A stretch of 54,426 nt of DNA, taken from NCBI GenBank assembly GCA_964652755.1, contig CAZZBP010000006.1, positions 1-54,426 on the forward strand, in the 5' to 3' direction. A program made the translations under genes and the position numbers. Shown in pieces: positions 16,873 through 54,426 of the stretch (the first letter of the stretch is position 1; every line of letters starts with the position of its first letter). A model generated the notes under the pieces. That model was not told where the DNA came from. It searched no databases and saw nothing but the letters and a program-made list of their open reading frames with translations. This DNA comes from an uncultured Dehalococcoidia bacterium (GTDB taxonomy: Bacteria > Chloroflexota > Dehalococcoidia > Lucifugimonadales > UBA826).

Positions 16873-16926
16873 GAGACAAATTAATTGCCCACGAAGGTCC
16901 ACGTTTATTGGTTTGCATTAAATTAG

Positions 16927-21851: not shown

Positions 21852-23255
21852 ATGGCTTCTGGAACTAACCAGCAGGCCGCGAGACTATGGCAGGCTGTTC
21901 TCGGTAAGATCGAGATGGCCATTCCGCGACCTAGCTTTGATACTTGGATAGCAGGCTCAGTCGGCGTCTCTTATGATGACGGCGAACTGCGAGTGTCTGT
22001 AAAAGACGCCTTTACGGCTAAATATCTGGAAGATAGATTGGTAGGGATAATTGAGACCGAGTTACGAAACGTCGGCGGAGAAGGCAACCATGTCACCTTC
22101 ATGGTAAATGGAGAACGCGCTCCAGTAAATACGGGCTATGGAGGCCATGAACAACCGGCGACTATCACCAATGGTCGGCCATCCACTGACGACCACTCCC
22201 TGCAACCGGAGAAAGGGCGGTTTTACTTACGTAGACCAGAGCTGAATTCACGTTACACATTTGATAGCTTCGTCGTGGGAGACTCAAACGAACTAGCCTA
22301 TGCTGCTGCCAAGGCTTCCTCTGAATCACCTGGCCACGCATTTAATCCTCTTGTCTTGTATTCAGGAGTCGGGCTGGGGAAAACACACTTACTTCATGCT
22401 ATCGGACATGTGGTTCGCAGCCAGGGCCTAGAGTGTGTCTACACAACCTGCGAAGAATTTACTAACCAGTATGTTAGCGCTATTCAACAGGGAAACACTG
22501 AACAGTTTCGCGACATGTATCGTTCTGCCGATGTTTTGCTTTTAGACGACATCCAATTCCTTATAGCGAAAGAGCAAACCCAAGAGGGGTTTTTCCATAC
22601 TTTCAACGCTTTACATATGGCAAATCGCCAGATAGTTATTACTAGTGATCGACCAATCGCTTCCCTCAGCGTACTTGAACCCCGCATAACATCTCGGCTA
22701 ATGGGAGGCCTAGTTGCCGATATCCAGTCCCCGCCTCTTGAAACCAGGCTCGCCATACTTCAGTCCAAAGCAAAACAACTTAAGTGCCACATTCCCACTG
22801 AGGTTTTGGAATTCTTAGCACAGCGGATACAATCCAATATAAGGGAATTAGAGGGAAACCTTAATCGGGTAGCGGCCTGGTCTCAATTCCGGGACGTGGA
22901 AATCACGATAGAGGATGTAGCCCGGATCACGGCTGGTACTTTGGGTCAGGGACGTGGAATAACAATAACTGACACAACAGTGATCTCAGCTGTCTCTAAT
23001 CATTTCGGGGTCGCCGCTGATCAGATCAAAGGGAAAAGTCGGCGTAAAATGACGGTCCTTTGCCGCCAAGTTGCTATGTACCTTCTTCGTGAAGAGACCA
23101 GTCTCAGTTTAAATGCTATTGGCAAACTCCTAGGAGGTAGAGATCACTCAACAGTCTTGCACGGCCACGAGAGGGTATCTTCACGCATAGAATTAGACGA
23201 TAGTCTTCGGGGAGATGTCTTAAAAATTCGGAATTCGCTATTGGGCGGATCGTAA
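21852..23255 (+). CDS. dnaA: Chromosomal replication initiator DnaA
   Basis: YTFDSFVVGDSN, Walker A GVGLGKTHL, LLLDDIQF, QEGFFHTFN, NIRELEG and domain IV GGRDHSTVLH. Confidence 0.98.
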   Translation: MASGTNQQAARLWQAVLGKIEMAIPRPSFDTWIAGSVGVSYDDGELRVSVKDAFTAKYLEDRLVGIIETELRNVGGEGNHVTFMVNGERAPVNTGYGGHEQPATITNGRPSTDDHSLQPEKGRFYLRRPELNSRYTFDSFVVGDSNELAYAAAKASSESPGHAFNPLVLYSGVGLGKTHLLHAIGHVVRSQGLECVYTTCEEFTNQYVSAIQQGNTEQFRDMYRSADVLLLDDIQFLIAKEQTQEGFFHTFNALHMANRQIVITSDRPIASLSVLEPRITSRLMGGLVADIQSPPLETRLAILQSKAKQLKCHIPTEVLEFLAQRIQSNIRELEGNLNRVAAWSQFRDVEITIEDVARITAGTLGQGRGITITDTTVISAVSNHFGVAADQIKGKSRRKMTVLCRQVAMYLLREETSLSLNAIGKLLGGRDHSTVLHGHERVSSRIELDDSLRGDVLKIRNSLLGGS

Positions 23256-24631: not shown

Positions 24632-26101
24632 TTACTGACTGTGCAAGGACCTATCTGTTGGCGTTGTAGCCACAAGTATTGTAGCCACAATCATAAGGCC
24701 AATAGATATCTGAAACGCTTTTGTCATCGCAGACACATAAGCGACGCGAAGTCCAATATCCTTAAGCTTCTCTGTATCGGATAGGTCGGCATCGTAACCC
24801 ATCGTTCCCATCACCAAAACTACTACAGCTGTAGGAACTGCAATTCCAACAACATGCGCACCGTTCCGGGTAAGGTTAAGAAAGGCGGAAACTATTCCGT
24901 ACCTTTCTCTACCAGCGGCCCCTAACATCACGCTAGCGTTCGGCGCCATGAAAATACTCATACCCGTCCCCGAAATAGCGGATGCTACAGCCACAACCAT
25001 AGGATTACTCTCAAGCGTAATGGTTGAATATAGATACATAGACACGATCGCCAGAATCATTCCTAAAGTTGAAGGAATCCTTGTTCCTATCCGGTCCCCT
25101 ATTTTACCGCTGATAGGACCAAACACCGACATCGAAACAGCCGCCGGCAGTAAATACAGTGCGGCTTCTGCAGTCGTCATTCGCAACCCAGATACTAGGA
25201 AAAATGGCATAAGAAAAAATGTGGCGGAGCTGGCACAAAAACATAGAAACCTAGATATTGCCCCCAGAGAAAATGCCGCCGAACTGAACAAGGAAAGAGG
25301 AAGCATAGGGACGGGGCACCGTCTTTCCCAAAGAAGAAATCCCACAAAGACTGTAATTGAGAGAAAAAAGCTCCCATATATTACAGGAGATCGCCACCCC
25401 AAATCGTTGGCGAAAGTAATCGCAACCATTACCAGGAGGAGAAATGCCGCAGATAATACAGTTCCACCCCAGTCTAGTTGTCCCAAGCTACGGTGCCCTG
25501 TTCCACTCTCACTTTGATCTTCCTGCAACACTATTGTCGCAATCAGTGCGGACAGCAGGCTAAACGCGGCGATAAATACAAATATGGCCCGCCAATCTAA
25601 GAGGCTGTCTATCCCTCAACCCACAACCGGACCGCCTACTGCCCCTATTCCCACTACTGTCATATGCAATCCAGCTGCCCTACCTCTCTCACTATCAGGA
25701 AATGCCCTCGCAATCATAGCCATACCGTTTGCCTGGGCCACAGACGCGCCAACTCCCATAAGAATCTTTCCAGAGAGCACCATGGCAAAATTACTGGAAA
25801 ACGAGGTGACCAGCGAAGCCGCAGCAAAAAGAACCAATCCCCATATCCACACCCGGCGTCTACCCAACATGTCAGCTATAGCTCCCGCAGGCATCATCAA
25901 TGCGCTTACACAAAGCATATACCCGATAGCTAACCACTGGACCGTGGGAATATCCGTACCAAAATCCTCGGCTATGCGAGGAATAACTATAGAGGTCGCT
26001 GACTGCTCCAAGACCGATATAAAGGTACCTGTGGATACGGCACCATAAATCCACCAGCGATAAGTAGGTTTGGACGCTAACGATAACAACGGGAAATTCA
26101 A
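24632..26101 (-). pseudogene. DHA2-type (14-TM) MFS transporter interrupted by one in-frame TGA
   Basis: ORFs 25616-26101 and 24632-25531 share a frame. Read-through gives GGPVVG*GIDSLLDWRAIF, with TGA at 25618-25616 in place of the conserved Gly. Confidence 0.85.
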
Positions 26102-41837: not shown

Positions 41838-43088
41838 ATGACTGACACCTGTAAAGTTGTTTCCAGATGGAGCAACGCTGATATTGATGAGCTTCTCTCA
41901 GCAGGCGCGCAAAACATAGGAGCCGGTAGCGCGACCGACGCCGGCAGGTCATGGAGTCGGCCTACCGATCACCCAGATCCCATTGTCCTAGCAGGCGGGA
42001 TTCCAGATGATACAGTCCTTCCCACAGCAGATCTCGTTGAAGGATTCTCCAGCGCAATCAAAAGCCACGCGGCCGATGCTCTCATGTACGGTGGATGGTA
42101 CGGTTACGAAGGCTGCAGGCAAGCCATCGCTGACAGACAGAACAAGATCGAAGGAACAACACTTGAGGCTGACAATATCATCATGCATAACGGCAGTTCC
42201 GGTTGCCTTGAAAACGTCCTGAAAGCTTTCATCCAACCAGGCGACGTTGCTATCGTTGAATCACCCAGTTTCTCAGGTACTGTCAGGGCAATCCAAGGCT
42301 TCCAAGCAGAAGTCGTTGAGGTACCCATGAATCGCTACGGGATAGAGCCAGATCTGTTTCGGCAAACAGTGGAGCGTCTCGAAAAAGAGGGTAGGAGAAT
42401 AAAGATTTTCTACACCATCCCTGATTACCACAACCCAGTTGGAAATGTGACTTCACTTGAAGTGCGACAATCGGTCCTAGAAACCTGTTCGGAGCATAAG
42501 ATTCTTATTGCCGAAGACGCCGCCTACACTGAGATATATTTCGATTCTCCCCCACCTCCCTCCTATTACGCTATGTCTAACGGGCACGGTGTTGTTAAAC
42601 TTTGCAGCTTCAGCAAAACGGTCGCGACCGGTCTAAGGGCTGGATGGATCCAGGCAAGGGAAGAGTTTGCGGCGCCACTCACAAAAGTCCGATTCGACAT
42701 GGGTAATAGCCCCTTGGTCCATTACGCTCTTGCCAATTTCATCGATTCCGGCCGGCTGGACTCACATGTTGAATCAATGCGCGCACTGTATCGAGACAAA
42801 TGTAAAGCACTTTGCAAATCCCTTCGTGATCACTGCAGTCCCTACGTAGAATTCGAGGAGCCGGACGGAGGTTACTTCCTTTGGGTAGATTGTAAGAAAG
42901 GCAAAGCAGCTGCTCTCACACGAGCGGCTGCGAAAGAGGGTTTAATATTTCCTCTTGGATCTGTCTTCTTTGTCGACAGGAACCAGGATGACACACATTT
43001 TCGACTAGCATTCACTCGAGCTCCATTCGCCAACCTAGAAGAGGCCGGCAGAAGACTAAATAGGGCCTTCGAGGCAATCCTGGACTGA
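41838..43088 (+). CDS. Class I/II PLP aminotransferase (LysN/2-aminoadipate transaminase-like)
   Basis: LAGGIPD, YTIPDYHNPVG, EDAAY, SFSKTVATGLRAGW and PDGGYFLW. Confidence 0.9.
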   Translation: MTDTCKVVSRWSNADIDELLSAGAQNIGAGSATDAGRSWSRPTDHPDPIVLAGGIPDDTVLPTADLVEGFSSAIKSHAADALMYGGWYGYEGCRQAIADRQNKIEGTTLEADNIIMHNGSSGCLENVLKAFIQPGDVAIVESPSFSGTVRAIQGFQAEVVEVPMNRYGIEPDLFRQTVERLEKEGRRIKIFYTIPDYHNPVGNVTSLEVRQSVLETCSEHKILIAEDAAYTEIYFDSPPPPSYYAMSNGHGVVKLCSFSKTVATGLRAGWIQAREEFAAPLTKVRFDMGNSPLVHYALANFIDSGRLDSHVESMRALYRDKCKALCKSLRDHCSPYVEFEEPDGGYFLWVDCKKGKAAALTRAAAKEGLIFPLGSVFFVDRNQDDTHFRLAFTRAPFANLEEAGRRLNRAFEAILD

Positions 43089-43140
43089 GCTTTTGTACTA
43101 GATTGAAGATCGCAATTTCCCCTGCCGACGTTGAGTTAAA

Positions 43141-43935
43141 GTGAGTGAATCAAATGATCCTGTGCACGGATCTGAACTTCCAGATTCAACAGATTTGATT
43201 TGTGCAACAGTCAGTGATATCTGTCGGATTTCCCCCACAAAGGTAGCTTTCACACTTCTTACCACGGACAACGAAGACCAATCAAAGCCCACCGCCTCAT
43301 TAAAGGAACCTATACACTTACCGGGCCAGTGGGTCGACCTTATCATCGAGATCAATGGCAGAGAATATATCGGTGGCTATTCAATCATATCTAGCCCTGA
43401 CGCTCCTTCCATATCTCTTGCGGTCAAAGACGTTGGGATCGACCCGGTCACCCGCTGGATTCACGACTCGATGTCAGAGGGCGACCAGGTTAAATTTACT
43501 GTCGGTGGCGATTTCTTCTATACAACAAACAAAGGTAGCGCACTACTCTTGGCTGGGGGTATCGGGATCACACCCCTTCTAAGCATATTTAGGTATATAG
43601 CGGAAAGAGGAGAGAAAATGGCAGCATTGATCCATTCTGCTTCCACCCCCGAAGAGTTCATCTATCAGAAGGAGCTAGAAGAGTTGGCCGATTCGAGTTC
43701 TTTACTCTACTATCTAGCTACCGCGACTCAGGTAGGCAGTATGGATACCTTGCAAACGACCAACCAGCATTTTGAAACCGGCCGACTGGATGCAAGTAAA
43801 CTACAACAAGTAGGCATCACCAAATACGATTCGGCTTTCATTTGCGGGCCTCCAAAAATGATTGAAGCCGGGAAAACTCTGCTGGAAACTCAAGGTTTTC
43901 CAGCAGAAAGAATTGAATACGAAAAATGGTGGTAA
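43141..43935 (+). CDS. FNR-like FAD/NAD-binding oxidoreductase (OXNAD1-like)
   Basis: PGQWVD, GGYSIISSP, LLAGGIGITP, FICGPP and C-terminal EKWW. No Fe-S domain. Confidence 0.88.
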   Translation: MSESNDPVHGSELPDSTDLICATVSDICRISPTKVAFTLLTTDNEDQSKPTASLKEPIHLPGQWVDLIIEINGREYIGGYSIISSPDAPSISLAVKDVGIDPVTRWIHDSMSEGDQVKFTVGGDFFYTTNKGSALLLAGGIGITPLLSIFRYIAERGEKMAALIHSASTPEEFIYQKELEELADSSSLLYYLATATQVGSMDTLQTTNQHFETGRLDASKLQQVGITKYDSAFICGPPKMIEAGKTLLETQGFPAERIEYEKWW

Positions 43936-43970
43936 TCGAACAGGCGCAACACGGCACAAAGCTCTACCAT

Positions 43971-45587
43971 TTATTCCACAATCTGGAATGGCGGCATCAT
44001 ATTCGTGATCTCTACGTCAATAACGGCGGGTGAATTCGCAGACATCGCCTTTGTTATCGCCTCTCCGATGCCATCAGTATCAGTTCGAATTCCGGTAGCA
44101 CCAAACGACTGCGCCAACATAACGAAGTCAGGGTTGTGAAGATCGGTCCCAATGTAGCGACCGTTGAAAGCATGCTCTTGATCCCACCTTGAGGCGCCAA
44201 AGGCACCATTATTAAACACCAATGCGATCGTGTTTAGACCGTATTTGACTGCGGTAGATAATTCTTGAGGAGAATACATAAATCCACCATCCCCGCACAG
44301 GGCTACAACCGGACGGTCCGGAAAAGCAGCCTGGCTACCCAAAGCGGTAGGATACACATAGCCCAACGTACCGAAATATGACGAGGAAACATAATTCCTT
44401 GGTTCACTCATAGGAAGAGCTTCACTGCTCCAATATCCGATATTAGTCATTCCTTGAACGACAATCGTATCATGAGTTAGGGCACTGCTAATCTTATCAA
44501 TTACAGAAACTTGCTCCGGTGCTAAACGGGATACTTCTCTTGAGAACTCTTCTTTCAGAGATACAGCTCTTTCCGATCGTTGACCTTTATCTATGCTAGA
44601 CGTTTCAATTTTAGATATTAGGTTATCTAAGCATTCTGCCGCGTCACCCACCAATCCTACTTCCGGAGTAAACTTCTGGCCTATTTGGCTTTTTTCAACA
44701 TCTATATGTACAAGTGTCGGCATATTTTCAGGCGAAACGCCCCTCAATGACAATCGCGTCCCTACAGCTATAAGTAGGTCACTGTCTGACAGAACCATGG
44801 ATGCTGGGCCGATTGCCGAATTTACTCCTGTCGCCAAATGGTTGCGCTCTGGGATTACCCCTTTCGCCAGTGGAGTTGTCATCACCGGAGCCTGTAATAG
44901 CTCTGCTAACTTTCGTATCTGATCGTGAGCACCTGAAGCAACTACGCCGCCGCCAGCAATAATAGCCGGCTTCTGGCTTTTGCTAATCAGGATGGCCGCC
45001 GCCGCGATATCCTCCATATCAGGTGTTGGGTGTGGAAAAGTTTCTTTTCCGACTAACGCTATGTCATCTGAGCCGGACAAGATATCGGGCGGTATCTCCA
45101 GTTCGACCGGACCAGGCCGGCCTGTTGTCATCTGGCGAAATGCTTCATGGACTGCCGAAGGTATTTCTCCAGCACTTGTAACTCGATGATTCCATTTCGT
45201 GATCGGCCTGAATACATCCAATTGCTCACTTATTTCATGCAACTGACCGGTATTTTTTCCAAGGAACATCGACGGAATTTGGCCCGATATCAATAGGACT
45301 GGGCTAGAACAAGCGTAAGCTGTACCCAAACCTGCCGCAGCATTCAGGGCCCCAGGACCTGGAACGACCATTGCCACTCCTGGTTTACCTGTGACTTTCG
45401 CGTACCCATCAGCCATATAAGTTGTTGCCTGCTCGTGCCTTGTCTGAATGAGGCTTATCTCGTCTATAACCTCATACATTGCATCAAAGGCAGACATTAT
45501 CTGAGCACCAGGAAGGGCAAATACAGTATCAACCCCCTCTGCTTCTAGTTGTCTTGTCAGGGCCTGTGCGCCATTCATTTGTACCAT
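43971..45587 (-). CDS. Thiamine pyrophosphate-dependent enzyme (acetolactate synthase/decarboxylase family)
   Basis: VFALPG, RHEQ, PGPG and the TPP motif GDGGFMY...VFNN. Confidence 0.92.
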   Translation of the reverse strand: MVQMNGAQALTRQLEAEGVDTVFALPGAQIMSAFDAMYEVIDEISLIQTRHEQATTYMADGYAKVTGKPGVAMVVPGPGALNAAAGLGTAYACSSPVLLISGQIPSMFLGKNTGQLHEISEQLDVFRPITKWNHRVTSAGEIPSAVHEAFRQMTTGRPGPVELEIPPDILSGSDDIALVGKETFPHPTPDMEDIAAAAILISKSQKPAIIAGGGVVASGAHDQIRKLAELLQAPVMTTPLAKGVIPERNHLATGVNSAIGPASMVLSDSDLLIAVGTRLSLRGVSPENMPTLVHIDVEKSQIGQKFTPEVGLVGDAAECLDNLISKIETSSIDKGQRSERAVSLKEEFSREVSRLAPEQVSVIDKISSALTHDTIVVQGMTNIGYWSSEALPMSEPRNYVSSSYFGTLGYVYPTALGSQAAFPDRPVVALCGDGGFMYSPQELSTAVKYGLNTIALVFNNGAFGASRWDQEHAFNGRYIGTDLHNPDFVMLAQSFGATGIRTDTDGIGEAITKAMSANSPAVIDVEITNMMPPFQIVE

Positions 45588-45723
45588 TTAATTCTAACTC
45601 CCAAAGTCATTACCGTAATCCTAGTACGATCCCCTCAGGCTTTAATAGAGGTGAGGTTCAACAGAGTCGTTCTTCCTTGAATCTACTTAGGTTGCGAGTT
45701 TAATATTTGTTACCAACAAGGCC

Positions 45724-45747
45724 ATAAAATGGTGCACTTCATGCACC
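45724..45747 (-). terminator. Putative intrinsic terminator after the LLM gene
   Basis: GGTGCA-5nt-TGCACC hairpin followed by ATTTTAT on the minus strand, just after the stop codon at 45753. Confidence 0.5.
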
Positions 45748-45752
45748 CTCTT

Positions 45753-46862
45753 TTATCTGAAGGCAGGCATTACTTCTTTAGAAAACAGGTCGATCGACTC
45801 CCTGACATGAGCCATTGGCATACGGCCGATTCCATGGCGCGCGCAGAAGATATCCATTTGGATCAGACCCTGTTGTTTCTTAAGCTTCCGTGTGACCGTC
45901 TCAGGGCTGCCAACGAGAGCTAGCCCATTATCTATCCAAAAGTCATACGAATACTGTCTCTCGCGAAAAACTCTTCTCAGCTCCTGATGTTCTTTTGTCT
46001 GAGTTCTCTTCTGGTATCTGCCATCTGAACTTACTTCAAGACCAGCCTGAGCCACCGCAACCTGACCTGCTTCATGAAACTCTGGGTCCTTATCCCTGGG
46101 CGTCACAAGGTGAGGCTCGGCCTGTTCCCTGGCTTTTTCGTCGGTTTCTGCAACATGAACGTGACGCGTTAGAAAAGCTAATGGCATTGGGGCAGCATTC
46201 TTGTATTTTTTCAACATTTTCCGCCACATATCAAACTTCTCCGCCACGACAGAGTCCACGTCTATGTTCTGAGATACGTTGAAGTTGTGCTTTGCCGCAA
46301 ATTCAAAACTATGGGGGCTATGGGCAGCGTACCAGATCGGTGGGTGAGGATCCTGGAAAGGCCTGGGTTCAGTAAGCACTTCAACGAAATTGAAGTGCTT
46401 ACCTTCGAAAGTCACTACACCTTTTGCCCACGCTTGCTTGATTACCTCAAGGGCTTCATGGCTTTGCTCTCTCCGAGATTCGTAGGGAATATTCCAGCGA
46501 ATAAACTCATGAGGCGAAATACCAGTGCCTACACCAAATTCAAATCTACCCCTAGACAGATGATCCAAAGTTGCTGATTCTTGCGCTAGCCTTATCGGAT
46601 GATGGAATGGCATCTGGTAAATCATCATACCGAAGCGAAGGACACTCGTACTCCTGGCCAGTGAGGCAAAATAGACATTAGGGGACGTTAAATAGCTAAG
46701 AGGGGAAGATTGGTGCTCAATTGAAAAATAGTATTCATATCCTTTCTGTTCTACTTCGACGGCCAGTTGGATATGATCATCATACATATCCGCCGCACTG
46801 GGATAGGAGTCTGCCACGCCGCGGCTCATTACATCGAACACTCCGAAAGAAAGTTTCGTCAT
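45753..46862 (-). CDS. LLM-class flavin-dependent monooxygenase (luciferase-like)
   Basis: IEHQ, HPIRLAQE, LDHLSRGRFEFGVG, PRPFQDPHPPIW, LVGSPETV and EVMPAF. Confidence 0.92.
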   Translation of the reverse strand: MTKLSFGVFDVMSRGVADSYPSAADMYDDHIQLAVEVEQKGYEYYFSIEHQSSPLSYLTSPNVYFASLARSTSVLRFGMMIYQMPFHHPIRLAQESATLDHLSRGRFEFGVGTGISPHEFIRWNIPYESRREQSHEALEVIKQAWAKGVVTFEGKHFNFVEVLTEPRPFQDPHPPIWYAAHSPHSFEFAAKHNFNVSQNIDVDSVVAEKFDMWRKMLKKYKNAAPMPLAFLTRHVHVAETDEKAREQAEPHLVTPRDKDPEFHEAGQVAVAQAGLEVSSDGRYQKRTQTKEHQELRRVFRERQYSYDFWIDNGLALVGSPETVTRKLKKQQGLIQMDIFCARHGIGRMPMAHVRESIDLFSKEVMPAFR

Positions 46863-46929
46863 AGATTACTCACTTACCAGCATAGCTATATAACGGTATT
46901 AACCCCGTGTTATCGATCCCGATTTATAT

Positions 46930-47991
46930 TCATATAAGTGGCAGCTGAATCTTCTGGCCCGTTTGAGCGCTCATGGTGACGGCATCAGTAAATTCCATAT
47001 ATTTGACGCCGTCAAAAAAGCTTGTGTGCGTAACTGGCTCAATTCCCCTAATTGCATTAATAAACTCTTCCTCCACCCGCCACGCTCCTTGCTGATCAGT
47101 CGGAATCTCTATTGGGGCAAGCTCGGAGTCGCCTCTTCGTCCACCGCTCAGGGATGCTGGTGTTCTCGTCGCCCTCGACGGACCCTTTAGAAACAATGTT
47201 CCCTCCGTACCAAATAACCAAACACCATCAATTGGACCTAGTCCGGTTACAGAACTCAGTCTCATCCTCATAACAGGACCCGAAGCCATCTCACAAAGAA
47301 TCTCAACATGGTCTGGCACAGTGATGTGTCTATTAAAGCCTAAGTCATCAACCCTACTTTTCACGTGAACTCTGTTGATTGAGGTGACAGATTCAGCAGG
47401 CCCTAACCACCTCATAATTCCTTCATACCAGATCCCCATAGTCATTATGTTGTTACCACTGATATCCCTGTCATACCTCCAATGGAACGACGACTCTGTC
47501 TCTTTGAATCCGCCCTGGCTTATCACCAAATCAACCGATAGGACATCGCCAAGGTATCCTTCCGCTATAAGTTGATTTATTTTTTTATCGACTCCGAGAG
47601 TCATTGGAGACGGTACGACTTGTGCAATAAGATTAGGGCTAGCAAGAGACGCACTTAGCATGGCCCGAGCCTCTTCAGAATTCATAGCCATTCGAGCCTC
47701 TGTCAACACGTGTTTACCTGAGGCAAGCGCATCCACTACAAGTTGGCAATGCATATATGGCCATGTTCCAATACAAATCGCATTGGAGTCCGAACCTTGT
47801 AAAAGTTCTTCCCAGTCGTCATAGACTTTTCTTATACCAAACTCATCAGCCACTTTTTTACCAGACTCTCTGCTGCGGTTTGCTACAGAGGCAAGAGTCA
47901 CACCTTCTATCTCTTTGAAGCCTGGTAAGTGTCTCAACCGGGTGTTTCCCCCCGCTCCAATAAAACCAATATTAATCAGGTCGTTGGCCAT
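46930..47991 (-). CDS. Gfo/Idh/MocA family oxidoreductase
   Basis: IGFIGAGG Rossmann motif, IGTWPYMH and GKHVLTEARMA (variant of EKP). Confidence 0.9.
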   Translation of the reverse strand: MANDLINIGFIGAGGNTRLRHLPGFKEIEGVTLASVANRSRESGKKVADEFGIRKVYDDWEELLQGSDSNAICIGTWPYMHCQLVVDALASGKHVLTEARMAMNSEEARAMLSASLASPNLIAQVVPSPMTLGVDKKINQLIAEGYLGDVLSVDLVISQGGFKETESSFHWRYDRDISGNNIMTMGIWYEGIMRWLGPAESVTSINRVHVKSRVDDLGFNRHITVPDHVEILCEMASGPVMRMRLSSVTGLGPIDGVWLFGTEGTLFLKGPSRATRTPASLSGGRRGDSELAPIEIPTDQQGAWRVEEEFINAIRGIEPVTHTSFFDGVKYMEFTDAVTMSAQTGQKIQLPLI

Positions 47992-48024
47992 TTCACACCT
48001 GCCTTTAGATGTTCAGGAATTCGT

Positions 48025-48555
48025 TCATTGAATCGCATCGTCTAGAGAACTTTCCAAGAGCCCGACAGCCCCGGACAGGTCCGCCCCCATCCTGAAGTCA
48101 GTCCCCTTCAATATTGTTTCGTTCATATTGGCGCCTGAGAAAGTGGCTCCCCAACAATTCGCGTCGGCCATGTTTGCCCCTTGAAGATTGGCATCGGTCA
48201 AATTACTACCCCGCAAGTTTGCCGAAGACAAATCGGAGTAAGACAAGTCGGCACCCATAAGATAAGTTTCTTCCAGGTTGGCCGGGGATAAGTCAGTTCC
48301 GGTTAAATTCGCATTCCTCAATTTTGCGCCCCTCAGGTCAGCCCCACAAAGAGTAGCTCCGGTTAGATCAGCCCCAGTAAGGTCCGAACCGTTGAGATCA
48401 GCTTGAGTTAGATCAGCATTACTAAGGTTAGTTCCTACTAATGATGACCCATGAAACTTCATCTCGCGTAGTTCCAACCCGGACATTTCCGCGCCATCCA
48501 AACTTTCCCCTGTTTCTACAGCTCCTGCAACTTTTGCACGGTTCATATCTTCCAT
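48025..48555 (-). CDS. Pentapeptide-repeat protein
   Basis: Continuous A(D/N)Lxx repeats (ADLTQ ADLNG SDLTG ADLTG ...). Confidence 0.95.
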   Translation of the reverse strand: MEDMNRAKVAGAVETGESLDGAEMSGLELREMKFHGSSLVGTNLSNADLTQADLNGSDLTGADLTGATLCGADLRGAKLRNANLTGTDLSPANLEETYLMGADLSYSDLSSANLRGSNLTDANLQGANMADANCWGATFSGANMNETILKGTDFRMGADLSGAVGLLESSLDDAIQ

Positions 48556-48613
48556 CTTGTTATATCATCTCGTTCGTTCATTTAGACGCGAAACCGTTGT
48601 ACCTTGGATTTCC

Positions 48614-49072
48614 TTAGTCTGGCTCATCCCAGATCCTCCATAGATCTGCCCTAGATCTCTTTGTCTGCCAAATATTGACCCCTTCTATCAAGGCTTTGTT
48701 TAAATTTGTATCATAAAACTCAGCTTGCCAAACGTCGGCCCCTCTAAGATCAGCCGCCTGAAGAATCGCCCCTGTAAGGTTTGCCTCCGTGAGATTTGCC
48801 CTTCTCAGATCCGCACGCTCCAGATTAGCCTTCGAAAGATTCGCATTTTTTAACGAAGTATCCCGCAAATCTGCCCCTTCCAGATTGGCATTGCTGAGAT
48901 TAGCTCCATCTAAGCTTGCATTCCTCAAATTCGCCATTCTTAAATCTGAGCCACTCAGCATGGCTCCATCGAATGTTCCTTCGCTTAGATCAAGACCTGA
49001 AAGATCGCAGTTCTCTAGGGTTTCACCGCTAAGCACTTTTTTTGAAATCTCTTCACTTGTGGATTGAGCCAT
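48614..49072 (-). CDS. Pentapeptide-repeat protein
   Basis: Continuous A(D/N)Lxx repeats (ANLRN ASLDG ANLSN ANLEG ADLRD ...). Confidence 0.95.
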   Translation of the reverse strand: MAQSTSEEISKKVLSGETLENCDLSGLDLSEGTFDGAMLSGSDLRMANLRNASLDGANLSNANLEGADLRDTSLKNANLSKANLERADLRRANLTEANLTGAILQAADLRGADVWQAEFYDTNLNKALIEGVNIWQTKRSRADLWRIWDEPD

Positions 49073-49096
49073 CTTCTCTTTAGTTACCGAGGAATA

Positions 49097-50095
49097 TCAG
49101 TCCGCCTCTCCTTCCAATTTATCTAATTGTGCTTTTCGATCTCTGATCGATTGAAGTAATTCGTTTTCACTTCCTTCCGGATTCCTGTCTGCAAACAACT
49201 CCACTAGACCTTGAGCTTCTTTAGTTCTTGCCATGTCCTTTGCTAAATCCTTGAACCCTTCTTTGAAGACGCTTCGCCCGTTATAAGGACAAACCATTAG
49301 GCACACCTTGCACCCATGAAGGCTCAGAAAGTAAGGTTCACATGCTCCTGTATCTACGTGCCAGCGATAAACGCCGTTTACGTTCTGTTTTTCTGGCTGG
49401 ATAGCCTCTCCGGGACAGAACCTTGTACAGACATTACACGTTTCACACGTTCTGTCTATTCCAAAATCTTTCGGCCCATCAACAGAAATTGGAATGTTCG
49501 TGGATACGGCACTCAGTCGGAATGAGGAGCCTAGTTCCGGGCTTATCAAGGATCCGTGTTTTCCAAGCTCTCCTAGACCAGCTAAGTAAGCATAGGGAAC
49601 ATGGGCAAGTTCTCCGCCATTTGCATGTGCCCTGGCGTCATAACCCATACTGCCTATGTAGTGAGCAAGCCTGACTCCGATGTCAAACATCTTGTGGTAC
49701 ACCCTCAGCACTTCTTGCTGGGAAATCGGTCCCACACTAGCGATGACATCGTATTTCATCGCTACTCCAAAGGCGATAACCCTTGTATGATCTAGAACTT
49801 CCGAATCGGTAAATGTGAACTGCGGGTCGTATTCGGCAACGCCAACAACATCGGCCCCCAGTTCCTTGGCATATTCTTTTATATGTTGTGCGATAGCATC
49901 AGGATCATCGATCTCTTGTCTATTCCTATTGATAATCGCATCGCGTATTGGCGTCAGAACTTGATTCATCAGCCACGCATACCTCTTCGACTCACTCGTG
50001 TACCTTCTAAGATACGGCATGGATTCCGGTGCCTGACTGGCTGCACCATCCTTACGCCTTCTCTTTGGTCTGACCGCATTTTTAATATCAATCAA
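49097..50095 (-). CDS. Reductive dehalogenase-like / QueG-superfamily cobalamin and 2x[4Fe-4S] protein, no Tat signal
   Basis: IKEYAKELGADVVGV, AGLGELGKHGSLISPELG..FRL..VSTNIPI..D.PKDFG, CETCNVCTRFCP and WHVDTGAC...CKVCLMVCPY. Confidence 0.8.
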   Translation of the reverse strand: MIDIKNAVRPKRRRKDGAASQAPESMPYLRRYTSESKRYAWLMNQVLTPIRDAIINRNRQEIDDPDAIAQHIKEYAKELGADVVGVAEYDPQFTFTDSEVLDHTRVIAFGVAMKYDVIASVGPISQQEVLRVYHKMFDIGVRLAHYIGSMGYDARAHANGGELAHVPYAYLAGLGELGKHGSLISPELGSSFRLSAVSTNIPISVDGPKDFGIDRTCETCNVCTRFCPGEAIQPEKQNVNGVYRWHVDTGACEPYFLSLHGCKVCLMVCPYNGRSVFKEGFKDLAKDMARTKEAQGLVELFADRNPEGSENELLQSIRDRKAQLDKLEGEAD

Positions 50096-50138
50096 CTGAC
50101 ACCCCCTTGCCTAATGTAAAGTCCTGGGAATTCTTCTC

Positions 50139-51224
50139 TCAAGCAATCGCGTAGAGACAACCGTCATCCGCTCCCAAATATATCCTCCCTCCTTCCTCAA
50201 TTGCAGGTGATGTGCGAATAGTTTGTCCAATATTCATGGTCCAAAGTTCTTCTCCTACAGAAGAAAGTCCATAAATAGTCCCATCTTGACAACACAAAAG
50301 TACAGACCCGTTCTCTGTTGAAACCACCGGAGAGGACCTGATCCTACATGACGAGTGGAACCGCCATTTTTCAGAACCATTCTGACTATCTAATGCGTAT
50401 AAGTTACCGTCATCACTTCCGATCAATACTGTACCGTCAGAAGAGATTGATGGTGATGACAAGACTGGCTTTTCAGTCATGAACTCCCATCTTATATCCC
50501 CGCTTTCCGTGTCAATACCTCTCACAGCTCCGTCAGCAGAACCTATGAAGACTAAGCCCGTCTCAGCGATGCCCGCTGAAGATTGAATGGCACCCAACAT
50601 ACCAACGAACGGAGATGCATAAACAGAACCGCCCAGCATCTTAGACCAAATACTTTTTCCTGTTTCCTCCGATATCGCATAGAGATGGCCATCAAAAGAA
50701 GAGATAAATACCTTCCCATCACGGGAGATAGAAGGAGAAGATCGGATCCTACCGCCCGTCACAAATGTCCACTCTTTTTCTCCCGATTCGGAATTAATCG
50801 CATAAAGTGTTCCATCATCTGATCCACAGAAAACCATTCCTTTCTCATTTTCTATAGGCGACGACATGACATATGAAAGCGTCGGAACTGTCCATTTAAC
50901 TTGACCCAAACTATCAAATCCATAGATTTTGAAATCGTATGAACCAACGTAAATATTACCCTTTTCTCCTACGCCCGGTGATCCTACTATGTGATCGAGG
51001 GTCTGAGAGGTCCATTGCGTCTCTCCTTCTGCACTCACGGCATACAGTCTGTGATCCCAAGAACCAATATAAACGGTACCGTCATCACCTGTGACAGGTG
51101 ATGACCTAGCGTAATCACCGATTTGTCTGGACCACAGGATTTGTGGTTCTTCAGCTGGAATAACCCGAGTCCGCCCCGCACGCCGCGGCCCTCCCCTAAA
51201 TATGGGCCAACCTCCATTATTCAT
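50139..51224 (-). CDS. PQQ-like (BamB/YxaL-type) beta-propeller repeat protein, no signal peptide
   Basis: About 8 repeats of SSP...DGxVxIGSxDGxLYA...GxxKW. The N-terminus WPIFRGG has no hydrophobic leader. Confidence 0.9.
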   Translation of the reverse strand: MNNGGWPIFRGGPRRAGRTRVIPAEEPQILWSRQIGDYARSSPVTGDDGTVYIGSWDHRLYAVSAEGETQWTSQTLDHIVGSPGVGEKGNIYVGSYDFKIYGFDSLGQVKWTVPTLSYVMSSPIENEKGMVFCGSDDGTLYAINSESGEKEWTFVTGGRIRSSPSISRDGKVFISSFDGHLYAISEETGKSIWSKMLGGSVYASPFVGMLGAIQSSAGIAETGLVFIGSADGAVRGIDTESGDIRWEFMTEKPVLSSPSISSDGTVLIGSDDGNLYALDSQNGSEKWRFHSSCRIRSSPVVSTENGSVLLCCQDGTIYGLSSVGEELWTMNIGQTIRTSPAIEEGGRIYLGADDGCLYAIA

Positions 51225-51240
51225 ATCCTTTTTTTCTTAT

Positions 51241-52698
51241 TCATTTAACTTTTGCTGCAGCCCCTTCAATAATGGCAAGAACCGAATCCTTAGCCTCACT
51301 TTTATCGTATCTGCTGTAAGTAGCGGCGGCGGTCCGATGAGGATCTCCCGTAAAAAACTTCTCATATAATCCCTGCCTGCCCCCAAAAGAACTGCACGCG
51401 ACATCCCAAGCCATTCTGAAGAGCTGGGTTCTTTGCTTCCCATTCAAACTGTCGGTTCCCAAATAATTCTCCAGAAATCCGCCCATTTCTGTCTCGAAAT
51501 CCGCCTCGGTTGGTATGGCCATGAGACTACTGGACCCCAGTAATTGAAGTATCTCCATTGCTCTTGGATAACCCTTTGCAAAAGTTGCTCGTGCAACGGT
51601 AAGTGGAGTTGAATCAGGAGTGAGTAATCCCCAATCGTTTATCGTCGCGTTTTGAACCGAAGCTGTTATACAAGCCTTCATTAACTCATGTGTGACAACC
51701 AGTTCCGAGGCTAAAGCTTGGATGTGGGGAGTTTCACTTGTACCTAGAGTCTCTGTCATAAGGGCAGCAAGGCCAAGTATAAACTCAGACTTGGCTATGT
51801 TCTTAACTATCACTTGAGACCTTATATGGCCCCCTGCTCCCGTTTCTGCAGCGTGTCGGTTAGCGAGGTCTACATCTTTTAGAATGAAGACTCGATCCCA
51901 AGGAACGAGAACATCATCAAATATTACAAGAGCGTCACTTTCGTCGAATCGTGACCCAAGTGGGTGGTCGAAAAAAGACCTTCCTAGATCTAAACTTTCC
52001 CGACATAGAAATCTAAGACCCTGGGTATCGCAAGGAAGAGCAAAGCCAACTGCATAATCAACAAAATCGGGATCGGTTCTAGTGGAAGAAGAGGGAAGCA
52101 CAAGCAACTCATCACTTATTGCCGCCAGGGTTGCCAGAACCCTTGCGCCCTTTACTACTATTCCCTTTCCTGTTTCCTTCACGCAGCGAAGGCCGAGTTC
52201 ATCCCCCTTCAACAACGAAGAAGATGATTTGCTCTTCCTCACATTCACTAAGGTATGGGTTAATGAAAGGTCGTGATCTCTCACATGCTGAGCATAATTC
52301 GTAATATTCTCACCGAAGCTCTCGTTCTTCTGCCCAAAGAAGCCTCCAGCGGCACCGAAGGCCGTAATCATCACATTTAAAAAGTCGGGAGTTCGCCCAA
52401 GCATACCTCCGCTCAATTTAGCCCAACTCAACATCATTTCATTACGTTCTTCAAGGTTTGTCCTCGTTCTTGGCTCTAAAAAGGACATCCCGACGGGTTC
52501 CCCTGTTGCAGGAGATGGGAAGGTCATCTTAACCGAATTTGCGTCATATTGCGTGTCATAAAGAGAGGCAATTGATCCGGCACATCTTGCGAAGGCCGGA
52601 TGGCTTGTTACGTCCTTGACCTGCTCTCCCTCAATCCAAATGTCTCTTGGGTGAGCGCGCAGTCCTTCCAGGTATTCTTCGCCAGTCCTAGCCGTCAT
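51241..52698 (-). CDS. Group D two-component flavin monooxygenase, oxygenase subunit (HpaB-like)
   Basis: RTGEEYLEGL, DVTSHPAF, GRTPDFLN, GARVLAT, DHPLGSRFDESDA..FDDVLVPWDRVF and SSFGGRQGLYEKFF.GDP. Confidence 0.92.
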   Translation of the reverse strand: MTARTGEEYLEGLRAHPRDIWIEGEQVKDVTSHPAFARCAGSIASLYDTQYDANSVKMTFPSPATGEPVGMSFLEPRTRTNLEERNEMMLSWAKLSGGMLGRTPDFLNVMITAFGAAGGFFGQKNESFGENITNYAQHVRDHDLSLTHTLVNVRKSKSSSSLLKGDELGLRCVKETGKGIVVKGARVLATLAAISDELLVLPSSSTRTDPDFVDYAVGFALPCDTQGLRFLCRESLDLGRSFFDHPLGSRFDESDALVIFDDVLVPWDRVFILKDVDLANRHAAETGAGGHIRSQVIVKNIAKSEFILGLAALMTETLGTSETPHIQALASELVVTHELMKACITASVQNATINDWGLLTPDSTPLTVARATFAKGYPRAMEILQLLGSSSLMAIPTEADFETEMGGFLENYLGTDSLNGKQRTQLFRMAWDVACSSFGGRQGLYEKFFTGDPHRTAAATYSRYDKSEAKDSVLAIIEGAAAKVK

Positions 52699-52785
52699 CG
52701 AGTAACCTTTTTATCGAGGCTCATAGAATCCACACCGATATGTTCTGGCAGGTTATAACAATCAAACCTAGCGATATTCAGTGAC

Positions 52786-53271
52786 TCAAAGCCTTGCATC
52801 AGTTAGTTTTTCGCCTGCGTGACCCTCTAAGGTGCCGGGAAATTCTCCGGCAAATAGGTATCCTTCCTGAGGCCATTCAGAAGGCGGGAGCTCGTGAAAA
52901 AGCTCGATCTCGTTTCCATCGGGATCAGAAAAGTAAAAGCCTAGTGACACCCCATGATCAGCTATGCCGTCAATAGTCATTCCTTGTTCAACACATTTCC
53001 GATAGGTCTCCCTCAATTCCTCTAGGCTAGCCATTTCCCAAGCGAAGTGGACCAATCCAATCCCTTTTTCACGAGCGTCTTTTGGAGCGTCCTTGGCGTC
53101 GATGAGAGCAAGTTCATGTGACGCATTACCACGGGCACTCATGAAAACCATCATTCCCCCAGGCCTTACCGTGGTGACGCTGAGCCCAAGAATTTCTTTA
53201 TAAAAATTTACCGATTTATCCAGATCACCAACTCGCAAAACCAGGTGCCCCAGTTGCTTTACTGCTGCCAT
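52786..53271 (-). CDS. VOC-family protein (single-domain, catechol dioxygenase/glyoxalase-like)
   Basis: LGHLVL, HELAL, GLVHFAW and DHGVSLGFYFSDPDGNEIEL, giving His/His/Glu metal ligands. Confidence 0.9.
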   Translation of the reverse strand: MAAVKQLGHLVLRVGDLDKSVNFYKEILGLSVTTVRPGGMMVFMSARGNASHELALIDAKDAPKDAREKGIGLVHFAWEMASLEELRETYRKCVEQGMTIDGIADHGVSLGFYFSDPDGNEIELFHELPPSEWPQEGYLFAGEFPGTLEGHAGEKLTDARL

Positions 53272-53329
53272 CTAAAGTGCCTCCCTTTAATAATCTCCTA
53301 ACATTTCAATAGTGACTCCGCTATCTCTC

Positions 53330-54127
53330 TCATGTCATCGCTTTTTCTGGTTGATCTGCATTAGCTATCTTAAGAAAGCTCTTTAAATGGGGAAGAACAC
53401 AAGCACTCTTTCGCGATACCTCTAGATGCTTCAACCCAGGAAAGGAAACGAATTTACAGTTGTCCAACGAGTTGGCAAGTCTTTTAACCCCGGCACTGTA
53501 ATCGTCATCCTCTCCAACATAAAGCATCAACGGACATTCTGCTCTTGTTACTGCAAGATCTATGTCTACCGGCATATTTTCAGAGGCCTTGATAGAAGCT
53601 AACAGCGCTTTGGGGTCGTTCCGGAGAAATCGCTCTCGATGAGTGGGGCTCATTGGCCCACCGTGAACCTCAAGGGTTCTGGCCACTTGCTCTATTTCTT
53701 CTTGCTCCAAGATCTTGGACCATCGACTTGATGGGGAATCATCATCTGAAGAATAAGGATGCATGCCCCCCACGATTAAGGATTTCAGGCGTTCGACAGC
53801 AAATTGTGCCATTCCAAAACCTATTTTCCCTCCCATTGAATAACCATGAAAATTAGCTAGTTGGATGTTTTCGTGGTCGAGCACCGATATAACGTCTTGA
53901 ACCCTGTGCTCGAGTTTGTAGGATTCAACGGTGTGAGGTTTGTCACTTAAACCATGCCCCCGTGCATCTATCAGAATTAGTCGGTAATTGTCAGCCAACT
54001 GGCGGGTATAACCGTATTCGAACCAATGGTCGAGGCTACTGGTGAATCCGTGTTGCATTACCAGCGCCGGCCCCTCACCGATCACCCGGTAATTGATCCT
54101 AGTCCCGCTGTTAAATGCGTACGGCAT
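53330..54127 (-). CDS. Alpha/beta fold hydrolase
   Basis: HGF oxyanion motif, DARGHGLS, GYSMG nucleophile, GEDD acid and C-terminal His. Confidence 0.92.
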   Translation of the reverse strand: MPYAFNSGTRINYRVIGEGPALVMQHGFTSSLDHWFEYGYTRQLADNYRLILIDARGHGLSDKPHTVESYKLEHRVQDVISVLDHENIQLANFHGYSMGGKIGFGMAQFAVERLKSLIVGGMHPYSSDDDSPSSRWSKILEQEEIEQVARTLEVHGGPMSPTHRERFLRNDPKALLASIKASENMPVDIDLAVTRAECPLMLYVGEDDDYSAGVKRLANSLDNCKFVSFPGLKHLEVSRKSACVLPHLKSFLKIANADQPEKAMT

Positions 54128-54374
54128 TCACTGACCACACAACCTATCCATTTTCATGATTACATCTAGTATGATGGGGCCAAAGTTTACGCTAGCAGTC
54201 AGCCGTGTGTCCATGAAATTTAATCATAGCGATGTGAACACAAAACCATGATTAATTTGTATCTATAGGCGATTCTTACTATCTTTGTTGATGTTGTTTG
54301 ATTTCATAACCCAACCTTAGTGCAAATTGCGGCAGAAAACGATTTGCAATCGATGGAAAATACAACTAGCTATA

Positions 54375-54426
54375 TGGAGCCGACGGTCGGGTTCGAACCG
54401 ACGACCTGCTGTTTACAAAACAGCTG
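54375..54426 (-). tRNA. tRNA-Thr(TGT), 5' part beyond the window, CCA encoded
   Basis: Minus strand reads GCTGT-TT-TGT-AA-ACAGC (anticodon arm), GTCGG-TTCGAAC-CCGAC (T arm) and CGTCGGC-T-CCA. Confidence 0.93.

Follow-up and report, generated by a model that had tools for sequence, protein, structure and literature searches.

Results

A block of nine co-oriented genes in a Dehalococcoidia contig

The window analysed here is a stretch of 54,426 nucleotides from an uncultured Dehalococcoidia bacterium (contig CAZZBP010000006.1 of assembly GCA_964652755.1), and our subject is a block of nine co-oriented minus-strand open reading frames (ORFs) that extends from position 54127 down to 45753 and includes a gene for a protein resembling the reductive dehalogenase (RDH) RdhA. 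Based on the ORF listing of the window and on matches to Pfam and NCBIfam, the gene order is alpha/beta hydrolase (abh), VOC protein, HpaB-type monooxygenase, beta-propeller, RdhA-like protein, two pentapeptide-repeat proteins (ppr1 and ppr2), Gfo/Idh/MocA oxidoreductase (Gfo), and luciferase-like oxidoreductase (LLM), separated in 5′ to 3′ order by gaps of 58, 87, 16, 43, 24, 58, 33, and 67 bp (Table 1). A model's reading of the bare sequence (the original prediction) had given this order, with gaps of 16–87 bp, and had proposed an operon for the catabolism of (halo)aromatic compounds; the layout was confirmed by the ORFs and by both domain libraries.

Table 1 The block, its borders, and the two genes beyond it in the window
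Feature	Position	Strand	Remark
tRNA-Thr(UGU) gene, 3′ part	54375–54426	−	Borders the block upstream; truncated at the contig end; ends ...GGTTCGAACCCGACCGTCGGCTCCA
Conserved leader before the first gene	54128–54188	−	Homology with the translocated L094 copy begins here
Alpha/beta-fold hydrolase (abh), 265 aa	53330–54127	−	Abhydrolase_1, 57 bits
Single-domain VOC metalloenzyme, 161 aa	52786–53271	−	Glyoxalase PF00903, 75.6 bits
HpaB-type two-component flavin monooxygenase, oxygenase component, 485 aa	51241–52698	−	TIGR02309; HpaB N and C domains
PQQ_2/BamB-like beta-propeller, 361 aa	50139–51224	−	Beta-prop_ACSF4, 225 bits; PQQ_2, 134 bits
Minimal RdhA-like B12/2x[4Fe-4S] oxidoreductase (predicted), 332 aa	49097–50095	−	TTG start; TIGR02486, 122.8 bits
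Pentapeptide-repeat protein 1 (ppr1), 152 aa	48614–49072	−	PF00805, 149 bits
Pentapeptide-repeat protein 2 (ppr2), 176 aa	48025–48555	−	PF00805, 160 bits
Gfo/Idh/MocA NAD(P)-dependent oxidoreductase, 353 aa	46930–47991	−	PF01408 and PF22725
Luciferase-like (LLM) flavin- or F420-dependent oxidoreductase, 369 aa	45753–46862	−	PF00296, 190.5 bits
Hairpin 3′ of the last gene	45731–45747	−	−11.4 kcal/mol, z −2.8; L094 homology stops at 45730
Thiamine pyrophosphate (TPP)-enzyme gene	43971–45587	−	Tenth minus-strand gene, 165 bp after the block, outside the conserved block
FNR/Fre-like NAD(P)H oxidoreductase, 264 aa	43141–43935	+	NAD_binding_1; without Fe–S domain; outside the block, two genes beyond

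Upstream, the contig ends inside a tRNA-Thr(UGU) gene approximately 240 bp from the first gene of the block. The region of this remnant aligns to positions 6657–6871 of the related locus L092, in which ARAGORN places tRNA-Thr (tgt) at 6634–6708; because the contig end truncates the gene, ARAGORN reports no tRNA-Thr in the window. A promoter-like site at 54213–54184 is not above chance. At the downstream end, the original prediction had described a terminator-like hairpin. The hairpin folds as claimed and its 6-bp stem is kept in L092 (z −2.0), with a weaker hairpin in locus L094 (z −1.5), but its reading as a terminator fared less well: the T-tract is kept in neither locus, and the counts of terminator-like and promoter-like sites in 43000–54426 match those of shuffled sequence (10 vs 10.1±3.2 and 17 vs 15.8±3.7, respectively). 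Because of these counts, and because the window holds a second run of nine consecutive minus-strand ORFs (5796–16902), co-orientation and a hairpin alone prove little. The original prediction had itself cautioned that co-orientation may not mean shared function.

None of the nine block proteins has a 19-residue hydrophobic stretch above 1.6 on the Kyte–Doolittle (KD) scale or a signal-like N-terminus, and all nine are predicted to be cytoplasmic.

The nine genes are inherited and relocated as one piece

A translocated copy of the block is present in the metagenome locus L094, which lies on a 508-kb contig. Window positions 54188–45730, comprising the nine genes, the leader of ~60 nt, and the hairpin, align as a single stretch of 8.46 kb to L094 5920–14370 with 88% identity, and the two sequences are unrelated outside it; specifically, the final ~60 nt before the first ATG are near-identical and the sequences are unrelated further upstream. 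In the window and in loci L092 and L095, the block sits between tRNA-Thr and the TPP-enzyme gene. In L094, it is flanked by a PNPOx-like gene upstream and by a different LLM gene, a DUF7700 gene, and tRNA-Ala downstream. L094 matches contig C36 of genome G002 with 99.7–99.9% identity; G002 represents a different genus of the same family, and C36 breaks within the VOC gene.

The proteins of the window and L094 copies are 87–97% identical. As a baseline, the median identity of best matches in the window's genome (G000) is 67% for 11 G002 proteins encoded on another contig and 94% for nine proteins of G001, a genome of the same genus; moreover, the orthologs of a second HpaB in G000 and G002 (the C55 type described below) are 66% identical, and eight of the 12 ORFs flanking the L094 copy have no match in the window's genome. 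Allowing for the small baseline sample, these identities are consistent with lateral transfer of the block from one genus to another. Synonymous divergence (dS) between the two copies is even over the nine genes (0.43–0.64) and dN/dS is 0.03–0.15, with the RdhA-like gene the most constrained (0.028), followed by values of 0.05 for Gfo, 0.07 for ppr2, 0.10 for ppr1, 0.13 for the propeller, and 0.15 for abh. All nine genes, the repeat proteins included, are under purifying selection.

Among 20 metagenome loci fetched, the five with an RdhA-like gene 95–98% identical to that of the window keep the gene order up to the contig limits. In the L092 variant, the hydrolase gene is missing and tRNA-Thr runs straight into the VOC gene (L092:6709–6868). 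The HpaB gene of this locus (L092:7397–8843) carries indels of +2 and −1 that spread it over three reading frames, which points to either a pseudogene or an assembly error, while its RdhA-like protein stays 96.7% identical. Because G001 is 77% complete and also lacks the flanking genes of 41838–45740, the absence of the block from this genome is uninformative. We conclude that the nine genes are a block that was inherited and relocated as one piece. The proposal of a shared unit thereby gains two genomic places with breakpoints at the ends of the run, and the presence of the same block at different places in two related genomes makes it a reasonable, if unproven, candidate pathway.

Precisely where homology with the window leader starts, L094 has a tandem 20-bp duplication (L094:5902–5941; AATTT[A/G]ACCGCATCAGACAA, twice), which may represent paired operators or a scar of recombination; the looser third copy at 14648–14662, 22 nt ahead of the start of the following LLM gene, is compatible with chance. 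Direct repeats were also considered as marks of the insertion ends and were discarded, as the sole candidate, a 15-nt motif with an exact core of 10 nt, is expected by chance in 9.5 kb.

The RdhA-like protein is a predicted minimal relative of NpRdhA

The best NCBIfam match of the RdhA-like protein is TIGR02486 (RdhA) with 122.8 bits, below the cut-off of 160.35, followed by QueG with 68 bits. The closest sequence in the PDB is NpRdhA (4ras; E 4e-39), to the catalytic half of which (residues 345–608) residues 61–311 align; N-terminal residues 9–208 align weakly to NpRdhA 30–221, and the matches to PceA and QueG are weaker (E 2e-26 and 5e-9). With an AlphaFold2 model (pLDDT 86, pTM 0.86) as query, Foldseek returned NpRdhA first (E 1e-17, TMq 0.67–0.72), and TMq was 0.58–0.60 for PceA and the 8q4h enzyme and 0.44–0.47 for QueG. 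On sequence and model, the protein is predicted to have the reductive-dehalogenase fold with the catabolic NpRdhA as its nearest solved relative. This agrees with the original prediction of a relative of the catabolic enzymes that lacks a twin-arginine translocation (Tat) signal and an RdhB partner: no Tat motif is present, basic residues at the N-terminus are not accompanied by a hydrophobic region (maximum KD12 0.71), and no transmembrane-like stretch of an RdhB-like anchor was found in any of the nine block ORFs. Other family members align from residue 1 of the TTG-start protein.

Two [4Fe-4S] motifs (CxxCxxCxxxCP and C...CxxCxxxCP) comprise C217, C220, C223, and C227 and C252, C262, C265, and C269, respectively. 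These eight cysteines, Y133, and R193 are invariant in all members of a family alignment of 20 sequences. Y133 aligns with NpRdhA Y426 and R193 with K488, which the passages of PMC7565698 available to us describe as proton donor and basic partner, respectively; the same passages name S422, K488, and R552 as the residues that bind the substrate hydroxyl. Among these three, the window protein keeps the basic residue alone (R193), whereas S422 and R552 are replaced by V129 and F256, and F256 is invariant in the family. At a position that aligns with the NpRdhA pocket residue M423, the window protein has L130 (window 49706–49708) in place of the His found in 19 of the 20 family members, which hints at a shifted substrate preference in the window's lineage.

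The catabolic NpRdhA/BhbA enzymes (PDB 4RAS, 6ZXU–6ZY1) are the best match of the protein in sequence and fold, and it shares with them both [4Fe-4S] motifs, the proton-donor Tyr paired with a basic residue, a gene context of aerobic aromatic catabolism, and the lack of Tat and RdhB; it differs in having 332 rather than ~700 aa and in being without the vestigial N-terminal cobalamin-binding-like domain and the fused reductase. To our knowledge, the small number of cytosolic reductive dehalogenases characterised so far all belong to this large type. With respiratory RdhA/RdhB systems of the PceA type (PDB 4UQU, 8Q4H), the protein has fold, cofactor motifs, and the Tyr/Arg pair in common, and it differs from them in lacking Tat signal, RdhB, and membrane link and in its aerobic context. 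We take the Arg of the PceA pair to be Arg305. Its Tyr, Tyr246, is named in a figure legend of PMC7565698.

A closer parallel in size is the 'simplified cytosolic type' of RdhA-like proteins predicted from metagenomes in Chloroflexota and Desulfobacterota, which average 395 aa according to the available text of PMC12219181. Shared with these are a shortened N-terminus, the lack of the vestigial domain, cytosolic location, and occurrence in Chloroflexota. Three RdhA paralogs of 417–437 aa in the window's genome, 28–33% identical to the 332-aa protein, appear to be of that type, whereas the family of the window protein (310–360 aa) is a separate and tightly conserved group, although the published set may include it.

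HpaB and a VOC protein form a conserved module

The block HpaB scores 537.5 bits against TIGR02309, above the equivalog cut-off of 480.2, and its nearest PDB entries are 9lft (E 2e-127) and Thermus HpaB 2yyg (E 7e-122), with chlorophenol monooxygenases at 1e-59 to 4e-39. By these scores, the protein is a true HpaB-family oxygenase, in line with the HpaB-like hydroxylase originally proposed. We take R100, Y104, H142, S197, and T198 to be the substrate-contact residues of the Thermus enzyme; in an alignment with 2yyg, R100, H142, and S197 are kept in the block HpaB, Y104 is replaced by F, and T198 by S.

A VOC gene lies directly upstream of HpaB in eight of the nine other HpaB loci of the family. 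Moreover, contig C55 of the window's genome carries a paralogous VOC–HpaB pair (G000:C55:9033–11091, L113) with 65% and 61% identity. VOC–HpaB is judged from these gene arrangements to be a conserved two-gene module. The neighbours of the C55 pair are genes for an FAA-hydrolase-family protein, an MFS transporter, an MBL-fold hydrolase, Ldh_2, and a GMC oxidoreductase, in the same arrangement in G001.

The VOC residues H9, H52, E53, H75, H106, Y113, and E123 are kept in all 11 correctly framed relatives. Scores against NCBIfam models are far below the cut-offs (catechol 2,3-dioxygenase 48.8 vs 320.2; HpaD 41.7 vs 321.4; GloA 40.6 vs 165), and PDB matches are weak and mixed. The protein is a candidate extradiol dioxygenase: H9/H75/E123 with H106/Y113 fit an extradiol site, but the conserved E53 fits a glyoxalase-I site equally well, and ring cleavage by the VOC protein is therefore inferred, not shown. 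The original prediction had further placed hydrolysis after ring cleavage. The alpha/beta hydrolase is not of the meta-cleavage-product type: its best NCBIfam match is PcaD with 73 bits (cut-off 255.9), it lies far below the cut-offs of BphD (29.8 vs 462) and HsaD (38.3 vs 400), and the PDB structures closest to it are those of esterases, epoxide hydrolases, and an enol-lactonase. Its gene is the one missing in L092. A hydrolase step in the proposed pathway is doubtful.

Compared with the homoprotocatechuate (hpa) pathway, in which the HpaBC hydroxylase acts with the extradiol dioxygenase HpaD, the block has in common the HpaB close to the Thermus enzyme and a VOC-superfamily gene as fixed neighbour, and the C55 locus also has an FAA-hydrolase-family gene. 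In contrast to that pathway, the VOC protein is a single domain of 161 aa far below the HpaD model, HpaE–I genes are absent from the block, and a search of the 88%-complete genome for an HpaC-type reductase (PF01613) gave no match, with 13 of 14 reference genomes positive as control. The FNR/Fre-like gene beyond the block has weak NCBIfam matches to GbcB, BenC, PaaE, Fre, and LuxG reductases; its product would be a possible supplier of flavin or electrons. The gene is kept in L092 and L095 and is not next to the block in L094, i.e. it does not travel with the block. CobS and CbiB were not found in the window's genome, which encodes two proteins with a B12-binding domain; together, this suggests corrinoid uptake.

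The RdhA-like family neighbours aromatic-degradation genes in several phyla

A homology search with the RdhA-like protein returned 381 matches, the best 120 of which are 234–397 aa long and 48–96% identical. Two family-specific peptide patterns match at least 597 stretches in species-representative genomes, at least 584 of which were confirmed as relatives of the query; eight genomes supplied two loci each. Judged from record titles, the family occurs in Dehalococcoidia, Alphaproteobacteria, Acidobacteria, Gemmatimonadota, and others; its members are ~310–360 aa long and ~50% identical across phyla (48–66% to the query), with 63 invariant columns in the 20 aligned sequences, and are named 'hypothetical', 'reductive dehalogenase domain-containing', or 'epoxyqueuosine reductase' in databases. 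An Atlas search gave many unnamed clusters of Fe–S proteins of 306–361 aa. Conservation of the neighbourhood across Dehalococcoidia, which the original prediction had named as a check, was not observed: an ortholog of the RdhA-like protein is present in none of 40 relatives of the window's genome, where the best matches are ORFs of ~380–470 aa with 28–37% identity.

We surveyed the neighbourhoods of 79 genome loci of the family, using flanks of 10 kb and blastp at E<=1e-5 with the window's proteins. Relatives of the propeller, ppr1, ppr2, and Gfo were found at none of the 79 loci; relatives of the other block proteins lie near the family gene at three loci for abh (weak), nine for VOC (none adjacent), four for HpaB (31–33% identical to that of the window), and 20 for LLM. 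At all four HpaB loci, the gene is adjacent to, or one or two genes off, the family gene on the same strand. Similarly, 15 of the 20 metagenome loci, with 48–64% identity to the RdhA-like protein, share no neighbour with the block, many of their contigs being short. Because neither the 79 genome loci nor these 15 metagenome loci share it, the nine-gene order is specific to one shallow lineage.

Other neighbours recur. UbiD and LigXa-type Rieske proteins are encoded at 12 of the 79 loci each, TauD and Amidohydro_2 proteins at 11 each, and LigB at eight, and at least one of these, HpaB, or a PobA-like gene lies within 10 kb at 41 of the 79 loci and at 36 of the 57 loci of at least 15 kb, counts that come without a background control and from groups of which several are close kin. 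In the Gemmatimonadota locus L060 (5927–19635), the order is Amidohydro_2–HpaB–UbiD–RdhA-like–PobA-like–LigB–LigC-type–Amidohydro_2–RraA–Amidohydro_2–PrpF–Rieske (LigXa-type), in which we recognise a predicted complete set for protocatechuate 4,5-cleavage. This resembles the BhbA route, given that the BhbA product enters the protocatechuate 4,5-cleavage pathway in Comamonas according to the available portion of PMC12219181. The Acidobacteria loci L033 and L064 have the order LigB-like–HpaB–(UbiD)–RdhA-like. A hydroxylase, a ring-cleavage enzyme, and a short RdhA-like protein thus recur with non-orthologous parts, which is the best support for a shared aromatic pathway. By contrast, in the nearest Dehalococcoidia homologs (L013, L015, L019, and L020, ~5000–10000; ~58% identity), the gene follows infB–rbfA–truB on the same strand, and genes for an NAD-dependent epimerase and a glycosyltransferase come next, with no catabolic context.

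In L033 (7443–10258), the series MFS–RdhA-like–UbiD–HpaB–LigB-like continues on the same strand with genes for an FG-GAP propeller and a TPR protein, a second, unrelated instance of repeat proteins behind such a cluster, but a single case that may be chance. Two other apparent associations were rejected. A pentapeptide gene beside a 450-aa RdhA paralog in G028 (L112:6849–8518) encodes a pentapeptide-repeat–TIR protein next to a HicB-like gene and was attributed to chance; the pair looks like a defence or toxin–antitoxin element unrelated to the dehalogenase-like gene. Propeller-like genes on the same contigs as RdhA paralogs in G017 and G023 are ~19 kb apart from them.

Repeat proteins, Gfo, and LLM

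The propeller is a very regular PQQ-like protein whose nearest PDB entries are the designed 'Cake' and 'Scone' propellers and 3hxj, with no enzyme match; none of the 40 relatives has an ortholog, the best match being 44% identical over part of the protein. The pentapeptide proteins share 37–39% identity with each other, and their likeness to Qnr/MfpA models (33–53 bits, cut-offs 240–500) stems from the repeats alone; pentapeptide paralogs on contigs C24, C11, and C14 adjoin unrelated genes. No signal peptide was found in any of the three. The original prediction had singled out the association of these proteins with the dehalogenase-like gene. They are real, selected genes of the cassette; the association, however, is found only in the window's lineage, and because none of the 79 homolog loci has a pentapeptide or propeller relative, we regard the three as a lineage-specific oddity and not as a feature of the family.

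For Gfo, every NCBIfam match is far below cut-off and a single PDB match reaches E 1e-13. A Gfo paralog with 54% identity (G000:C57:4294–5327) was recovered as two overlapping tblastn pieces (residues 1–309 and 294–352), suggesting a frameshift. LLM reaches no NCBIfam subfamily cut-off and has 25 tblastn matches in the genome, i.e. many paralogs.

The block is represented in marine RNA libraries

Nine marine RNA-library runs contain 5–14% of the sampled words, and contigs on the block were found in all four marine RNA-library runs examined, which come from four studies. By a 31-letter rule, five of the eight gene junctions are bridged by RNA-library contigs: LLM/Gfo, ppr2/ppr1, ppr1/RdhA-like, and VOC/abh in run X1, and RdhA-like/propeller in three runs (X1, X2, and X3). 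Co-expression across the junctions, as expected of an operon, is in this way supported for five of them but not for Gfo/ppr2, propeller/HpaB, and HpaB/VOC, for which there is no bridging contig among the 32 matches listed. Parts of the block have no RNA contig in single runs, which is no evidence of absence. The block is probably expressed, and the pattern is consistent with co-transcription; because the libraries may hold DNA and a contig is no transcript, it is not proof of an operon.

Discussion

A candidate pathway for substituted phenolic compounds

That the nine genes form a cohesive, mobile, and probably expressed aromatic cassette built on the VOC–HpaB module and a minimal NpRdhA-like enzyme is well supported. 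Our working hypothesis goes further and holds that the block is a transcribed, cytoplasmic accessory cassette for the catabolism of a substituted 4-hydroxyphenyl-type compound in aerobic, marine, SAR202-like Dehalococcoidia. We give this hypothesis, which is tentative, a probability of roughly 40%, and its 'halo-' part is drawn by analogy. In the first step, the RdhA-like enzyme, using imported cobalamin and a low-potential donor, would reductively strip a substituent from the ring, in the likeliest case a halide from a compound of the 3-halo-4-hydroxyphenylacetate or -benzoate type. HpaB, supplied with reduced flavin by a reductase other than HpaC, would then hydroxylate ortho to the phenol, and the VOC protein would cleave the resulting catechol. 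Finally, the hydrolase and/or the Gfo-type dehydrogenase and LLM may act on the product of ring fission or on a side chain. Propeller and pentapeptide proteins would be conserved passengers of this lineage's cassette; a function as scaffold or maturation factor is speculation.

Several observations weigh against this hypothesis. The RdhA-like protein falls short of the RdhA model, lacks S422 and R552, which bind the phenolate in NpRdhA, and, with L130, the His of its own family at a pocket position, and halide removal by the family is an analogy; moreover, ~50% identity over at least four phyla fits one common substrate better than varied organohalides. Downstream, VOC residues H9, E53, H75, and E123 also fit a glyoxalase-I-type site and the PDB matches are weak, the hydrolase is not of the meta-cleavage-product (C–C) type, and L092 has lost the hydrolase and has a frame-disrupted HpaB. 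HpaC, CobS, and CbiB were not found in the window's genome, and the block contains neither a transporter nor a regulator gene. To these points we add that the neighbourhood is not preserved at identities of 60% and below, with propeller, pentapeptide, and Gfo genes missing at the 79 genome and 15 metagenome loci, the uncontrolled count of aromatic-type neighbours, and possible DNA in the RNA libraries together with the inability of a contig to prove a single transcript.

Two alternatives compete with this hypothesis. The first leaves the cassette and its aromatic-catabolic theme unchanged but takes the short RdhA-like proteins not to be dehalogenases; they would perform another B12/Fe–S-dependent reduction on a common phenolic metabolite, and the product would pass to HpaB, UbiD, or ring cleavage. 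Epoxide reduction by QueG is a precedent for non-dehalogenating chemistry in this fold, and the unusual conservation of the family, its score below the RDH cut-off, and the replacement of S422 and R552 by V and an invariant F are all in keeping with such a reaction. Halogen is not required by the partners UbiD, LigXa-type Rieske, LigB, and TauD, which are of lignin/hydroxybenzoate types, and the nearest Dehalococcoidia homologs follow infB–rbfA–truB. On the other hand, the Tyr/Arg dyad for protonation after C–halogen cleavage is invariant, QueG is far more distant in sequence and fold than NpRdhA and PceA, the gene context in L060 mirrors the known route from BhbA through PobA to protocatechuate 4,5-cleavage, and several genomes have two copies, as would be expected of catabolic paralogs. 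On balance, we regard this alternative as unlikely, albeit one to be reckoned with.

The second alternative is that the block is a mosaic of functionally unrelated, co-travelling genes in which VOC–HpaB is the sole working pair. The fact that homology with the translocated copy breaks off at either end of the nine genes, the even dS and strong purifying selection in all nine genes, the five bridged junctions, and the recurrence of non-orthologous HpaB-like (31–33% identical) and ring-cleavage genes (LigB for VOC) by the RdhA-like family in unrelated phyla all argue for a functional unit instead. Yet long co-oriented runs of unrelated genes are typical here, such as that at 5796–16902; LLM, pentapeptide, and propeller genes have many scattered paralogs, and pentapeptide, propeller, and Gfo relatives are missing from the homolog loci; abh is dispensable and the L092 HpaB is disrupted next to a nearly unchanged RdhA-like gene; regulator and transporter are absent; and promoter-like sites lie within the run, for example at 50142–50113 just before the RdhA-like gene. 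We consider a mosaic improbable to a similar degree as the first alternative. A respiratory reductive dehalogenase for organohalide respiration, which the RDH fold, the Fe–S motifs, and the membership of obligate organohalide respirers in the Dehalococcoidia could suggest, is disfavoured and very improbable, as the protein has no Tat motif or hydrophobic N-terminus, none of the nine genes encodes a membrane protein, its 332 aa compare with 464 and 503 aa in solved respiratory enzymes, the neighbours HpaB and LLM are O2-dependent oxygenases, and cytochrome c maturation genes in the window fit an aerobic lifestyle.

More speculatively, the RdhA-like proteins of 310–360 aa could be widespread, minimal, O2-compatible B12/Fe–S reductases that serve aerobes of several phyla in one conserved step on phenolic acids, possibly not dehalogenation, and the SAR202-like lineage would have recruited the propeller and pentapeptide proteins as helpers that were co-transferred and co-selected as cofactor-loading, protective, or scaffolding partners; we think this combination distinctly unlikely.

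A search for literature pairing a reductive dehalogenase with a pentapeptide repeat found none, and, judged from the search listing, there is no description of a cluster that pairs one with HpaB. The passages on SAR202 and reductive dehalogenases in PMC5864207, PMC5395668, and PMC12750322 mention no such dehalogenase gene in SAR202, and in the available text of PMC5864207 and PMC5395668 dehalogenases are confined to the reference lists. The most conserved gene of a genus-hopping cassette in an abundant marine clade encodes a half-size relative of the cytosolic dehalogenases, and its family, with at least 584 loci in species-representative genomes, stands beside textbook aromatic-degradation genes in several phyla. 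As a soluble protein of 332 aa without a partner subunit, it is a concrete target for expression. The cassette raises the question of whether aerobic marine bacteria free natural phenolics of halogens or other ring substituents before cleaving the ring, which bears on marine organohalogen turnover and on the use of recalcitrant organic matter by SAR202; a chemistry other than dehalogenation would extend the range of reactions known for the B12 fold.

Other observations in the window

A dnaA gene is present at 21852–23255, and the window therefore probably lies near the chromosomal replication origin. At 24632–26101, two successive ORFs on the minus strand, of 299 and 161 aa, together make up a split MFS transporter; they match the C- and N-terminal halves of MFS_1, respectively, and likely reflect a frameshift or a pseudogene. 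In the region 8814–16327, three family-III CoA-transferase genes lie in tandem, with three acyl-CoA dehydrogenase genes flanking them, and a further LLM gene follows at 16927–17931. This region matches the paralog-rich oxidative gene content described for SAR202 in the available text of PMC5395668.

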